Below are positions 48,801-52,440 of a stretch of DNA of 64,000 nucleotides, piece after piece. A program made the translations under genes and the position numbers. Under the pieces are notes generated by a model. It was not told the DNA's origin and did not search any database. It was given only the letters and a program-made list of their open reading frames with translations. This DNA comes from Escherichia coli. Lineage in GTDB: Bacteria; Pseudomonadota; Gammaproteobacteria; Enterobacterales; Enterobacteriaceae. The stretch is taken from the NCBI RefSeq assembly GCF_001677475.2, contig NZ_CP015229.1; one strand, 5' to 3'. Each line of letters starts with the position of its first letter. Positions within the stretch are counted from its first letter, which is position 1.

Positions 48801-49130
48801 TCAACTCTCGTTCAGTACACTAAACATCCCGTTCCGCATCCCCTTAACCACCTGTTTAACCTGATAAAGCTCCTCCCGCAGTTCCTGCATCTCGTCACTG
48901 TCAGCGATGATGGTCAGGCACCCATCCGAGATCTTTACAGTCACGCCTGTCCCGGTATCAAATCCCGCCTCTTTCAGCCAGTCGCCCTTAAGGTGCAGGC
49001 TGGGGTGTTGTGAATAATACCGGGCTATACCGGTTGTGCGATCTTCGTGGCGGGCTCTGACATAGCCGACTTTATAGCGGCGCTGTGTTTTGGAAATGGT
49101 GACTTCTGGCGTAATATCGTGTTCAGCCAT
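48801..49130 (-). CDS. SymE-like type I toxin family protein (AbrB/SpoVT-fold)
   Basis: 109 aa; core ...SLHLKGDWLKEAGFDTGTGVTVKISDGCLTI... resembles E. coli SymE; paralogue at 51319-51648. Confidence 0.6.
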   Translation of the reverse strand: MAEHDITPEVTISKTQRRYKVGYVRARHEDRTTGIARYYSQHPSLHLKGDWLKEAGFDTGTGVTVKISDGCLTIIADSDEMQELREELYQVKQVVKGMRNGMFSVLNES

Positions 49131-49204
49131 GATTAACTACCTCGATTAGTTGCTTGTGGTGAGCGGCTGTTACAGGCGGCAACCTGTAGCAGTCGCGTTA
49201 AATA

Positions 49205-49434
49205 TCAACGCATTACCTTCATTACCTGCTTCATCTTCTCCTGCGTGATCGCCATATCCAGAATGCGGCAGATCACTTCCTGATCGTCTGCTTTAAGCTC
49301 ATCAACCTGCTTACACAGTTCCTTTAACCGCTTGTTTTTAATATCGAAAACAGGAGCGGTGGAACCTTCTTCACCCAACAGCAGGTGGTCAATACTGACT
49401 TCCAGAAGCTGGGCCAGCTTAATGATGTAATCAG
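49205..49434 (-). pseudogene. 3' fragment of an XRE-family HTH regulator gene, truncated by H-repeat insertion
   Basis: Minus-strand translation DYIIKLAQLLEVSIDHLLLGEEG... (about 76 codons to stop at 49207-49205) starts abruptly at the H-repeat boundary; no start codon. Confidence 0.45.
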
Positions 49435-49436
49435 GG

Positions 49437-50720
49437 AAAGATCACGTAATGCTGCTTTTTTGTACTAAACAATTCGCATTTTATGTTTAAAAATTGAGAT
49501 ATTCCTCATTACATAAAGCTGTTTTTTATTGCTTATACATGATCAAATACTCCTTACATAATTAAGGAGAACAAAATGGAACTTAAAAAATTGATGGAAC
49601 ATATTTCTATTATCCCCGATTACAGACAAGCCTGGAAAGTGGAACATAAATTATCGGATATTCTACTGTTGACTATTTGTGCCGTTATTTCGGGTGCAGA
49701 AGGCTGGGAAGATATAGAGGATTTTGGGGAAACACATCTCGATTTTTTGAAGCAATATGGTGATTTTGATAATGGTATTCCTGTTCACGATACCATTGCC
49801 AGAGTTGTATCCTGTATCAGTCCTGCAAAATTTCACGAGTGCTTTATTAACTGGATGCGTGACTGCCATTCTTCAGATGATAAAGACGTCATCGCAATTG
49901 ATGGAAAAACGCTCCGGCATTCTTATGACAAGAGTCGCCGCAGGGGAGCGATTCATGTCATTAGTGCGTTCTCAACAATGCACAGTCTGGTCATCGGACA
50001 GATCAGGACGGATGAGAAATCAAATGAAATTACAGCTATCCCTGAACTTCTTAACATGCTGGATATTAAAGGAAAAATCATCACAACTGATGCGATGGGT
50101 TGCCAGAAAGATATTGCAGAGAAGATACAAAAACAGGGAGGTGATTATTTATTCGCTGTAAAAGGAAACCAGGGGCGGCTAAATAAAGCCTTTGAGGAAA
50201 AATTCCCACTGAAAGAATTAAATAATCCAGAGCATGACAGTTACGCAATTAGTGAAAAGAGTCACGGCAGAGAAGAAATCCGTCTTCACATTGTTTGCGA
50301 TGTCCCTGATGAACTTATTGATTTCACGTTTGAATGGAAAGGACTGAAGAAATTATGCGTGGCAGTCTCCTTTCGGTCAATAATAGCAGAACAAAAGAAA
50401 GAGCCAGAAATGACGGTCAGATATTATATCAGTTCTGCTGATTTAACCGCAGAGAAGTTCGCCACAGCAATCCGAAACCACTGGCACGTGGAGAATAAGC
50501 TGCACTGGCGTCTGGACGTGGTAATGAATGAAGACGACTGCAAAATAAGAAGAGGAAACGCCGCAGAATTATTTTCAGGGATACGGCACATCGCTATTAA
50601 TATTTTAACGAATGATAAGGTATTCAAGGCAGGGTTAAGACGTAAGATGCGAAAAGCAGCCATGGACAGAAACTATCTCGCGTCAGTCCTTGCGGGGAGC
50701 GGGCTTTCGTAATCTTGCCC
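49437..50720 (+). mobile_element. H-repeat element (ISAs1-family insertion sequence), apparently intact
   Basis: Left boundary defined by identity between the two copies starting GGAAAGATCACGTAA (49437 and 51748); right boundary approximate. Confidence 0.6.
49576..50712 (+). CDS. H repeat-associated protein (ISAs1-family transposase)
   Basis: 378 aa, same length and character as E. coli H-rpt proteins (YhhI/YdcC family); Rhs-linked location. Confidence 0.8.
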
Positions 50721-50736
50721 TGACCATCTGACGGAT

Positions 50737-50922
50737 GTGGCTGGTAATCCATCAAACATTGCTAATAGATTTTCAAAGGTCATTGATGGAAAAGATGTTC
50801 AGTTTGTTACTAAGGACTCTTTATTTGCCGGGCCGAGCGGTAAGTTTGCGCAATTTGAATCTACTTGGCAGGTTTTGGATAATGGTTCATTACGATTAAC
50901 AACAGTGATCCCGAAATTATGA
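50737..50922 (+). CDS. Orphan toxin C-terminal fragment (remnant)
   Basis: 61 codons from GTG; frame is open back to the H-rpt stop; AT-rich; stop overlaps the next ATG. Confidence 0.35.
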   Translation: MAGNPSNIANRFSKVIDGKDVQFVTKDSLFAGPSGKFAQFESTWQVLDNGSLRLTTVIPKL

Positions 50923-51239
50923 TTAGAGAATTTGAAGAGAAAATGTCTGATTTGTTTGGTGTTGATGCAACATCATTCGATCCTGAATATGCGCAGTGGA
51001 CATATTTATTTAAGAAGGGTTTATTTTCACTTGAATTTGTTTATGCTCTGGATAAAACAATATCTACGGCTTTATATTATAATGAAAATTTATTGTCTTT
51101 TTATTTTGCCAATGGTCTGGAACACCTTAGCATAGAAGACAATAAAATTCATGGTGTTATTGTTAAAGGTAATACAACCAGAAAACTAGAGATAGATCCA
51201 TTAAATTTAATTATAAAATGGGAAGATTCATTAATATAA
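50919..51239 (+). CDS. Putative orphan immunity protein
   Basis: 106 aa, AT-rich, ATGA overlap with the upstream fragment. Confidence 0.4.
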   Translation: MIREFEEKMSDLFGVDATSFDPEYAQWTYLFKKGLFSLEFVYALDKTISTALYYNENLLSFYFANGLEHLSIEDNKIHGVIVKGNTTRKLEIDPLNLIIKWEDSLI

Positions 51240-51318
51240 TGATTGCAATATTCCATTTCAATAAGAAATAACCAATAAAAAGCCGGAGTGCTATTAAATC
51301 TTCCGGCTTTTTTATTAT

Positions 51319-51648
51319 TTAATTCTCGTTCAGCACACTAAACATCCCGTTCCGCATCCCCTTAACCACCTGTTTAACCTGATAAAGTTCCTTCCTCAGT
51401 TCCTGCACCTCGTCGCGCTCCGCAATCAGGATCAGGCACCCCTCCGAGATTTTCACAGTCACGCCCGTCCCGGTATCAAATCCCGCCTCAGCGAGCCAGT
51501 CGCCTTTAAGGTGCAGGCTGGGGTGCCGTGAATAATACGTGGTCATGCCTGTTTTACTGTTCTGATGGCGGGCGCTGACATAGCCCACCTGATACTGGCG
51601 CTGTGTTTTGGAAATGGCGACTTCTGGCGTAATATCGTGTTCAGCCAT
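51319..51648 (-). CDS. SymE-like type I toxin family protein (second copy)
   Basis: 109 aa, about 80 percent identical to the 48801-49130 product. Confidence 0.6.
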   Translation of the reverse strand: MAEHDITPEVAISKTQRQYQVGYVSARHQNSKTGMTTYYSRHPSLHLKGDWLAEAGFDTGTGVTVKISEGCLILIAERDEVQELRKELYQVKQVVKGMRNGMFSVLNEN

Positions 51649-51747
51649 GATTAACTACCTCTGTTAGTTGCTTGTGGTGAGCAGATTGTCAGTGTTGGTA
51701 GCACTGGCAATCTGCGTTAAAAATCAGTGTATTACTCTCTTTTCCAT

Positions 51748-52440
51748 GGAAAGATCACGTAACGCTGCTTTTTTGTACTAAATAATTCGCATTTTATGTT
51801 TAAAAATTGAGATATTCCTCATTACCTAAAGCTGTTTTTTTATTGCTTATACATGATCAAATACTCCTTACATAATTAAGGAGAACAAAATGGAACTTAA
51901 AAAATTGATGGAACATATTTCTATTATCCCCGATTACAGACAAGCCTGGAAAGTGGAACATAAATTATCGGATATTCTACTGTTGACTATTTGTGCCGTT
52001 ATTTCGGGTGCAGAAGGCTGGGAAGATATAGAGGATTTTGGGGAAACACATCTCGATTTTTTGAAGCAATGTGGTGATTTTGATAATGGTATTCCTGTTC
52101 ACGATACCATTGCCAGAGTTGTATCCTGTATCAGTCCTGAAAAATTTCATGAGTGCTTTATTAACTGGATGCTTGACTGCCATTCTTCAGATGATAAAGA
52201 CGTCATTGCAATTGATGGAAAAACGCTCCGGTACTCTTATGACAAGAGTCGTCGCAAGGGAGCGATTCACGTTATTAGTGTGTTCTCAATAATGCACAGT
52301 CAGATTCCTTGGAAGATCAAGACGAATAAAAAAACAATGAGATTACAGCTGTTTCTGAATTTCTTAACATAATGGGTATTAAAGGAAAAATAATTGCACC
52401 GATCCAATGTGATACCAGAAAGACATCGCTAAGAAGATAG
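51748..52440 (+). pseudogene. Truncated H-repeat element (ISAs1-family transposase pseudogene)
   Basis: ORF 51890-52372 matches the first 146 aa of the intact copy, then diverges into a premature stop; remaining sequence degenerate. Confidence 0.65.

Follow-up and report, generated by a model that had tools for sequence, protein, structure and literature searches.

Two SymE-like genes with candidate SymR-like antisense RNAs at the ends of different Rhs cassettes in Escherichia coli

Introduction

How did two diverged SymE-like toxin genes come to stand one behind the other downstream of an Rhs gene, each with an H-repeat (H-rpt) element beyond its 5' end, and what might control them? The question arises in a 64,000-nucleotide stretch of Escherichia coli DNA (contig NZ_CP015229.1 of RefSeq assembly GCF_001677475.2; "the window" below), in which the two genes and the two H-rpt elements, copies of the insertion sequence (IS) ISEc1, lie between positions 48,801 and 52,440. 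An earlier note on this DNA had taken the layout for a single unit duplicated together with H-rpt and had proposed control by an antisense small RNA (sRNA) and the SOS response. From sequence comparison we consider it likely that the window instead holds two SymE-family paralogues with cis-encoded SymR-like RNAs, under a control that does not involve LexA, which end different Rhs cassettes and have lost an upstream helix-turn-helix (HTH) regulator gene at their junctions with ISEc1. Positions of all features are collected in Table 1.

Two SymE-Family Paralogues

Both minus-strand open reading frames (ORFs) that the earlier note had described as about 80% identical SymE-like genes (48801-49130 and 51319-51648) were present, with identities of 81% in protein and 85.8% in DNA; the alignable block to which they belong extends over 385 bp at 87% identity. 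Membership in the SymE family, which the note had left open to refutation by a profile search, held up: Pfam SymE_toxin (PF08845) was matched at E 8.7e-22, with residues 16-75 covering model positions 1-53 of 54, and the same domain was present in all database relatives of the protein. The NCBIfam SymE equivalog NF010128, however, was matched at only 52 and 57.9 bits against a cut-off of 132, and identity to K-12 SymE was 37%, from which we conclude that the window proteins form a paralogous SymE subfamily and are not orthologues of the K-12 protein. The pair are thus diverged paralogues within a family of AbrB/MazE-like small DNA-binding toxins, and toxicity may be ascribed to this subfamily by analogy.

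The ratio of non-synonymous to synonymous divergence (dN/dS) was 0.26 between the two window genes and 0.19-0.35 in every comparison between diverged SymE-like alleles, so that the protein is, or recently was, under purifying selection; a near-identical pair from two other E. coli loci (L003 and L004, 7 differences) gave 0.72. The SymE-like protein matched none of the PADLOC defence-system models and therefore does not belong to a catalogued anti-phage defence system, and the HTH and primase proteins described below gave generic PADLOC matches only.

Antisense RNAs Over the Start Codons

The regions just upstream of each gene (49131-49225 and 51649-51747), which the earlier note had singled out as candidates for an antisense RNA, proved well chosen. 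On the plus strand, Rfam symR (RF01809) matched 49125-49199 at 38.5 bits (E ~1e-4) and 51643-51718 at 48.3 bits (E 4e-7), and a covariance model of our own, R1, gave 80.1 bits for the first SymR-like element and 101.7 bits for the second, the latter being among the sequences from which R1 was built. The elements are approximately 80 nt long and fully complementary to the ribosome-binding site, start codon and leader of the toxin gene, the first of them spanning all of these, including the 73-nt leader of SymE-like gene 1. They share the symR architecture by homology, as judged from sequence, yet lie outside the curated Rfam family.

Their geometry is that of K-12. Each predicted RNA starts 6 nt inside the SymE-like coding sequence, as does annotated K-12 symR, and 7 nt upstream of both starts stands a conserved promoter-like element (TTGGAA, 16 nt, TAATAT), which answers the note's suggestion to look for antisense promoters. 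The element lies within SymE-like codons 5-14 and aligns with TAGAAT upstream of K-12 symR. Copies from E. coli, Erwinia, Budvicia and Citrobacter have all kept this embedded promoter, and synonymous divergence (dS) between the two genes of the window is 0.04 in codons 1-18 vs. 0.19-0.77 elsewhere in the gene.

Both copies are predicted to fold into the K-12-like pair of hairpins at −35.3 kcal/mol (z −5.2 and −5.5), whereas the complementary minus strand reaches only −21.4 (unit 1) and −22.3 kcal/mol (unit 2); the antisense strand is the more stable by 13-14 kcal/mol because its G-U pairs become A-C mismatches in the mRNA. Hairpin 2 differs at many positions between the units while pairing is retained. 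Across 8 distinct sequences, 95.7% of alignment cells were paired, compared with 26-54% when partners were slid; 16 of the 28 pairs had changed on both sides, and none of 500 shuffles attained the observed values. A cis antisense RNA over the ribosome-binding site and start codon, the hallmark of symE/symR, is in this computational sense found at both genes by model hits, geometry, fold, covariation and promoter. Within the first 40 nt, which cover the ribosome-binding site and start codon, the two SymR-like RNAs differ at 2 positions, and each could therefore also pair with the mRNA of the other copy.

We also scanned 36 loci from species-representative genomes of other Enterobacterales, retrieved with a SymE alignment, with R1. 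SymR-like elements were found only in Erwinia (L008), Budvicia (L019), Escherichia (L007) and two K-12-type loci; the Rhs-linked SymE-like copies in other genera were mostly 5'-truncated or frameshifted.

A Lost HTH Gene and the LexA Question

The SOS part of the earlier proposal did not survive. No LexA box (CTGT-N8-ACAG, at most one mismatch) was found across 47715-56663. In K-12 the LexA box lies just past the 3' end of symR; here the same position is taken by the stop and C-terminal codons of an HTH gene, a remnant absent from the earlier note. By tblastn the remnant at 49205-49431 is 100% identical to residues 58-132 of an intact 132-aa HTH protein of E. coli PEC395 (gene at L001:12271-12669), which matches phage repressor families in PHROG.

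In the intact relatives, PEC395 (L001) and Budvicia (L019), the HTH and SymE-like genes point the same way with a spacer of 74-77 nt, nearly all of it filled by a SymR-like element, and beyond the pair lie a divergent CHC2 primase-helicase gene and then a XerC-type recombinase gene. No intact operon of this kind is present in the window, where residues 58-132 of the regulator are left in unit 1 and approximately 22 bp of its gene in unit 2: the ISEc1 junction took the DNA-binding half of the HTH gene in the former and nearly all of it in the latter. With the 5' part of the HTH gene the operon promoter would have gone too, in which case the SymE-like genes are probably silent. Both would then be transcriptionally orphaned, as their sequence context makes probable, while their SymR-like genes remain intact.

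Operons of a Cro/cI-type HTH gene (cHTH) with SymE were described by Kawano 2007 (PMC1891008), together with primase-helicase, transposon and RHS/haemagglutinin neighborhoods, and control by a transcription factor and control by an sRNA were there treated as alternatives that displace one another. Judged from the sequences of the intact relatives, the two appear to co-occur in the cHTH-linked subfamily rather than to replace each other.

Two observations concern the intact modules. Between the HTH gene and the divergent primase-helicase gene of PEC395 there is an operator-like palindrome, TATTGACCT...AGGTCAATA (L001:12690-12740), likely the binding site of the HTH protein. In Budvicia diplopodorum, a 6456-bp unit comprising a XerC-type recombinase, a 991-aa primase-helicase, cHTH, a SymE-like gene with SymR-like spacer and a small ORF is repeated in tandem (L019:1-12222, on a 17.6-kb scaffold), which suggests that the assembly went twice around a small circular replicon or an excised element.

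ISEc1 Junctions and the Origin of the Two Units

As the earlier note had observed, an H-rpt element, intact in one unit and truncated in the other, comes after each SymE-like gene on the plus strand, and the left ends of the two are identical: the string GGAAAGATCACGTAA occurs at 49435-49449 and at 51748-51762. The true IS termini lie 3 nt to its left (CAGGG and CATGG). The intact copy has the attributes of the ISAs1 family, namely 18-bp terminal inverted repeats matching at 15 of 18 positions (CAGGGAAAGATCACGTAA and CAGGGCAAGATTACGAAA) and a 378-aa transposase that scored 415.8 bits with NF033564 (cut-off 70). The truncated copy is 92.6% identical to it over 698 aligned columns, its ORF is broken after 160 aa, and it is syntenic with a truncated ISAs1 pseudogene beside a GGDEF gene in E. 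coli MEI003.

No target-site duplication was found around the intact ISEc1 (flanks ATGATGTAAT and ACCATCTGAC), which indicates later rearrangement at the element and not a fresh insertion. In unit 1, 301 bp separate the IS left end from the ATG; in unit 2 the distance is 96 bp. The latter junction occurs in 74 of 5,426 complete E. coli genomes and, in MEI003, at the same chromosomal site, where the end of RhsE adjoins GGDEF, sulfatase and pptA genes; the unit 1 junction occurs in none of the 5,426. A third junction, the commonest (85 E. coli genomes), puts the IS end 6 bp from the ATG, with loss of the ribosome-binding site, and in a fourth form the IS is reduced to ~32 bp at its right end, fused to hairpin 1 of the SymR-like element. 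The orientation of the IS is constant in all four forms, its left end always toward the 5' end of the SymE-like gene. Given this constancy and the missing target-site duplication, we prefer nested deletions from one ancestral insertion; the pattern fits a single old ISEc1 insertion, after which adjacent DNA was deleted and IS copies recombined with one another. Independent, targeted insertions upstream of SymE at the four junctions were also considered and fit less well, a preference that falls short of proof. A preprint on the mobilome of a single strain ("Single-strain mobilome") held no evidence of ISAs1 or Rhs circles.

Tandem duplication of one SymE plus H-rpt block, as the earlier note had it, is hard to reconcile with these junctions. 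The two units do share order and orientation, and the left ends of their IS copies are nearly identical. The divergence is unequal, however, with 86-87% identity between the SymE blocks but 96.4% between the IS copies over their first 560 bp; the distances from IS to ATG differ; the junction of unit 2 is ancestral at this site while that of unit 1 was found in none of the complete E. coli genomes; the cassettes that precede the genes are unrelated; and the intact IS has no target-site duplication. We regard duplication as very improbable. The two SymE-like units terminate different Rhs toxin-tip/immunity cassettes; unit 2 with its truncated H-rpt is the old right end of the RhsE element, and unit 1 with the intact H-rpt is an internal junction.

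A further observation concerns the IS itself. Transcription from the SymR-like promoter would run into ISEc1 in all four junction types, in the direction of the transposase gene, and at the commonest E. coli junction (L003:7320-7381) the IS end lies ~40 bp downstream of this promoter with the SymR hairpins deleted. The promoter could drive transcription of the ISEc1 transposase.

The Two Rhs Cassettes

The main Rhs gene and the 109-aa ORF behind it make up the first cassette. From 47000 to 49137 the window is collinear without gaps, at 96% identity, with an RHS protein gene, a downstream 109-aa ORF and a SymE gene of E. coli GF131, where they occupy a different Rhs locus, adjoining ybgA; the GF131 copy of the immunity candidate is annotated as hypothetical. 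The DNA between the IS copies (50723-51744) is a separate cassette of a probable tip remnant, a 106-aa candidate immunity gene and SymE-like gene 2. A megablast search of the 5,426 complete E. coli genomes gave no match to its tip remnant and immunity candidate (50723-51282). The two toxin/immunity cassettes are unrelated to each other, and neither immunity candidate, nor the orphan tip, nor the Rhs tip gave a usable match in NCBIfam, PADLOC or Pfam, the best being Ntox47 at E 0.15.

Upstream of the Rhs gene (41184-43681) are a 664-aa ORF and a 150-aa ORF, the latter a DcrB-related protein by synteny with PEC395, and the block at 28-43 kb resembles a secretion-system gene cluster. The flank on the other side (56000-59000, pptA-yddH-nhoA-yddE) is at most 96.6% identical to any of the 5,426 genomes, which points to a divergent lineage of E. 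coli or a sister clade within Escherichia as the origin of the window.

Table 1. Features of the two SymE-like units and their surroundings in the window.
Feature	Position	Strand	Evidence
Main Rhs toxin gene, 1571 aa, with C-terminal tip; start of cassette 1	43700-48415	+	ORF; collinear with GF131
Candidate immunity gene of cassette 1, 109 aa, 11 nt past the Rhs stop	48426-48755	+	ORF; position only
Bidirectional terminator-like hairpin between immunity gene and SymE-like gene 1; left edge of conserved block	48765-48792		Terminator scan, both strands
SymE-like gene 1, 109 aa, intact	48801-49130	−	Pfam SymE_toxin PF08845; NCBIfam SymE 52 bits
Rfam isrA match, antisense within SymE-like gene 1	48931-49059	+	RF01385, 115.2 bits (gathering score 51)
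SymR-like promoter element 1 (TTGGAA, 16 nt, TAATAT, 7 nt to start)	49090-49117	+	Inside SymE-like gene 1 coding sequence
Predicted SymR-like antisense RNA 1, two hairpins	49125-49203	+	Rfam symR; own model R1; fold; covariation
3' HTH remnant, C-terminal 75 of 132 codons, Cro/cI-type regulator, cut by ISEc1	49205-49431	−	tblastn
ISEc1/H-rpt, intact, 1291 bp; transposase 49576-50712	49432-50722	+	NF033564; inverted repeats
Probable orphan toxin-tip remnant, 61 codons, abutting IS right end; start of cassette 2	50737-50922	+	ORF; position only
Cassette 2 immunity candidate, 106 aa; overlaps the stop codon of the ORF before it	50919-51239	+	ORF
Hairpin after cassette 2 immunity gene, positional homologue of 48765-48792	51279-51310		Sequence and alignments; uncalled by terminator scan
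SymE-like gene 2, 109 aa, intact	51319-51648	−	NCBIfam SymE 57.9 bits; 81% identity to gene 1
Rfam isrA match, antisense within SymE-like gene 2	51449-51577	+	RF01385, 103.8 bits (gathering score 51)
SymR-like promoter element 2 (TTGGAA, 16 nt, TAATAT)	51608-51635	+	Differs from unit 1 by one spacer base
Predicted SymR-like antisense RNA 2	51643-51722	+	Rfam symR; own model R1; fold
~22 bp from the 3' end of a diverged HTH allele	51723-51744	−	Alignment with unit 1; junction shared with MEI003
ISEc1/H-rpt, truncated and decaying; right end of Rhs element	51745-52439	+	Alignment to intact copy

SymE-like Genes at the Ends of Rhs Cassettes in Enterobacterales

The position of the SymE-like genes is not peculiar to the window. 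A SymE-like gene or fragment was convergent to the end of an Rhs core in 22 of the 36 loci, at 0.6-1.4 kb beyond it in 20 and at 1.9-2.8 kb in two, a spacing that puts it immediately behind the tip and its immunity gene. In orphan arrays (L016, L017, L011, L028, L001 and L004) Rhs core fragments alternate with SymE-like fragments, and a Salmonella locus that we examined has the same order of Rhs gene, immunity gene and convergent SymE-like gene. Where units carry unrelated cassettes, homology between them begins in the 3' half of the terminator hairpin, at 5-10 nt beyond the stop codon of the SymE-like gene.

Alleles of the block are also mosaic (48741-49203 and 51259-51722 in the window; L001:11843-12269; L003:6967-7366; L004:6694-7157). 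The MEI003 copy agrees with one allele over the 3' ~270 nt and with window unit 2 from ~60 nt into the gene through the SymR-like element, and window unit 1 resembles PEC395 in its first ~70 nt, in the SymR-like element and in the HTH gene, though not in the gene body. Crossovers fall within the gene's conserved first ~60-70 nt, so that the gene body travels with the cassette and the 5' end, SymR-like element and HTH gene with the downstream flank.

These sequence patterns hint that the SymE block behaves as a recombination boundary of Rhs cassettes, whether by function or as a side effect of linkage. The conserved block of hairpin, SymE-like gene and SymR-like element might be kept mainly as a 3' homology arm, with the Rhs core as the 5' arm, an arrangement compatible with the explanation that we favor and one by which Rhs loci and strains could exchange cassettes or accumulate them in stacks. 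The recurrent convergent layout, the alternating arrays, the start of homology at the hairpin and the crossovers in the gene 5' end all speak for it, as do the occurrence of cassette 1 with its SymE-like gene at a different Rhs locus in GF131 and the presence of the SymE/IS flank of cassette 2, though never of the cassette itself, among complete E. coli genomes (74 vs. 0 of 5,426). Against it, the dN/dS values speak for selection on the protein and not on DNA alone, truncation points of the fragments vary (residues 31 to 89) with no fixed site, mosaic examples are few, and linkage alone could give the same pattern; we hold the idea to be possible but short of probable. More doubtful is its extension, in which the block would be the universal 3' boundary of Rhs, and probably of contact-dependent inhibition (CDI), cassettes in Enterobacterales, may stabilize orphan arrays as an addiction module, and would have its full-length terminal copies from a XerC/primase-helicase/cHTH/SymE replicon, a small element that would deliver or anchor Rhs arrays. 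A fixed recombinase site within the SymE-like gene, an idea that came from the XerC gene beside the intact module, was rejected on the scatter of truncation points.

Two E. coli strains (L001:6232-6268 and L004:3553-3595) contain an identical illegitimate junction of a 5'-truncated SymE-like gene with an Rhs core fragment (GGGCAGAT joined to GCTG.GCTGG.AGCACGACGG), which from its sequence appears to be one old junction spread by recombination. There is also a clade of 99-127-aa SymE proteins without Rhs neighbors (L022-L026; Leminorella, Yokenella, Atlantibacter and Siccibacter are among the sources of these loci and L031). In L022-L026 a different conserved hairpin, CCGCCACC...GGTGGCGG, lies ~110 nt upstream of the SymE-like start, together with a conserved GGAGGCTGCCC leader, and may be a different regulatory RNA; L031, likewise with no Rhs nearby, has an upstream region unlike theirs.

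Matches to the IsrA and Ssr1 sRNAs

Inside both coding sequences, on the antisense strand, Rfam isrA (RF01385) was matched well above its gathering score, a finding absent from the earlier note. Because the model spans coding sequence, the match speaks for homology of the locus, perhaps of the gene only, and not for expression; no sigma-70-like promoter was evident upstream of the matches in the promoter scan. IsrA, a Salmonella RNA of 423 nt, lies antisense in cis to STM0294.1n, and the expression of the two is inverse (Padalon-Brauch 2008, PMC2330248). The Salmonella enterica locus mentioned above has an isrA match (141 bits) inside its SymE-like gene, and there an orphan Rhs core fragment has taken the place of the first codons of this gene and of its SymR-like element, the join falling exactly on the −10 of the SymR-like promoter (L042:3800-4360). 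A 423-nt IsrA beginning at the start of the Rfam match would enter this orphan rhs fragment in the sense direction.

Shigella flexneri Ssr1 was reported between an Rhs-family gene and a hypothetical gene (Wang 2016, PMC4782007). Its Rfam model (RF02627) aligned over the end of the immunity gene, the terminator and the antisense strand of the SymE-like gene, in partial matches of 102-128 bits against a gathering score of 820. Antisense transcription has thus been shown elsewhere, at loci homologous to the window units (PMC2330248, PMC4782007), and may by analogy occur here. Our literature search for a link between isrA and SymE, which used prefix matching, returned nothing relevant.

Weighing the Explanations

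In the mechanism that we propose, the SymE-like gene of an intact module stands second in an operon, behind a Cro/cI-type HTH regulator gene, as in PEC395 and Budvicia; a SymR-like RNA, presumably transcribed from the promoter embedded in the first 15 codons of the toxin gene, would by analogy with K-12 symER block translation of the SymE-like mRNA; and in the window ISEc1-associated rearrangements have removed the HTH gene and, presumably, the operon promoter with it. Several results weigh against this account. Both Rfam symR scores fall under the gathering score of 61; the embedded promoter fits the sigma-70 consensus at just 8 of 12 positions, the reason why the promoter scan missed it; and the covariation alignment consists of only the 8 sequences, which were found with R1 and fitted to it. 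On the minus strand the same scan found no site between the IS and the start codon of either unit, so the module may be silent. K-12 SymE, for which RefSeq uses the name "nucleoid-associated protein SymE", has moreover been re-interpreted as a nucleoid-condensing DNA-binding protein and not an RNase (Thompson 2022, as summarized in PMC11894785), which makes "toxin" an inherited label for the SymE-like proteins.

The silence of the module could mean that both genes are inert leftovers whose ORFs were kept by chance. The loss of HTH gene and operon promoter, with no promoter-like site left, agrees with this, as do the many frameshifted or truncated relatives in other genera and the missing ribosome-binding site at the commonest E. 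coli junction; yet two intact 109-codon frames at 14% DNA divergence, with dN/dS of 0.26, and an intact antisense gene and promoter in both units make mere scars unlikely. A longer antisense transcript of the IsrA/Ssr1 type, running across the coding sequence and possibly read through from the Rhs/immunity genes, might be the relevant regulator instead. It could draw on the isrA matches, on the inverse expression of IsrA and its target and on the convergence of the Rhs operon with the SymE-like gene, but gene homology may suffice to explain a model laid over coding sequence, no promoter-like site precedes the matches, a terminator hairpin parts them from the immunity gene, and the Salmonella context, with its Rhs fragment in place of the SymR-like part, differs; we judge this quite unlikely. 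A still slimmer chance attaches to the HTH protein as both true antitoxin and repressor in a type II-like pair, the hairpins being mRNA or terminator structures and no antisense RNA being made. Transcription-factor control of cHTH-SymE operon genes was proposed by Kawano 2007, and the adjacent, co-oriented genes of PEC395 and Budvicia accord with it, whereas the G-U-dependent stability of the antisense strand, the lack of a U-run after hairpin 2 on the sense strand and the conserved embedded promoter with its suppressed synonymous change do not, nor does the retention of an HTH-less SymE-like gene in at least 159 complete E. coli genomes (74 + 85).

Comparison With Known Systems

The arrangement is ordinary, widely annotated in Escherichia and not a new system, and the finding as it stands matters little: RefSeq annotates SymE-like genes routinely, and the neighborhood types were sketched in 2007. 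What it adds is that the cHTH-linked SymE subfamily also carries a SymR-like RNA, with copies that the Rfam symR family misses, and that the published island sRNAs IsrA and Ssr1 map antisense to unrecognized SymE-like genes adjoining Rhs genes. If the block does act as a recombination boundary, this would explain the swapping and displacement of Rhs toxin tips and the recurrence of SymE genes in Rhs, CDI and type VI secretion system (T6SS) loci, on which the searchable papers offered passing remarks only.

Small addiction-type modules among repeated, recombination-prone cassettes recall, by analogy, chromosomal integron arrays, which are stabilized by toxin-antitoxin cassettes; the window differs from these in having no integron integrase or attC sites. 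Among the nearest known systems is K-12 symE/symR (Kawano 2007, PMC1891008), with which the window genes share PF08845, a two-hairpin RNA of 77-80 nt, a start 6 nt inside the coding sequence and the same −10 spacing. They differ from it in protein sequence (37% identity, under the NF010128 cut-off), in having no LexA box, in their upstream neighbor, which is hsdS in K-12 and natively cHTH in the window subfamily, and in location, the hsd-mcr immigration region in K-12 vs. the ends of Rhs cassettes here. The cHTH-SymE operons of the same study are matched by the PEC395 and Budvicia loci in every part, with cHTH, SymE, a divergent primase-helicase and a tyrosine recombinase near Rhs genes, apart from the SymR-like element in the cHTH-SymE spacer of both.

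Salmonella IsrA/STM0294.1n resembles the window in the antisense isrA matches to both coding sequences and in the order of Rhs, immunity and convergent SymE-like gene, but there the 5' end of the SymE-like gene and the SymR-like element have given way to orphan Rhs core, and IsrA, at 423 nt, was originally described without a link to SymE. Shigella Ssr1 likewise adjoins an Rhs-family gene and its model overlaps the antisense strand of the SymE-like gene, although the matches are partial and the definition of Ssr1, as an intergenic sRNA, made no mention of a SymE-like ORF. The H-rpt/ISEc1 elements of E. coli Rhs loci, finally, agree with those of the window in length (1291 bp), in their 378-aa ISAs1 transposase and in their places within and at the end of an Rhs element, positions similar to those of K-12 ydcC and ybfD. 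There is no difference in kind; what is distinctive here is the left end of the element facing the 5' end of a SymE-like gene at four different junctions.

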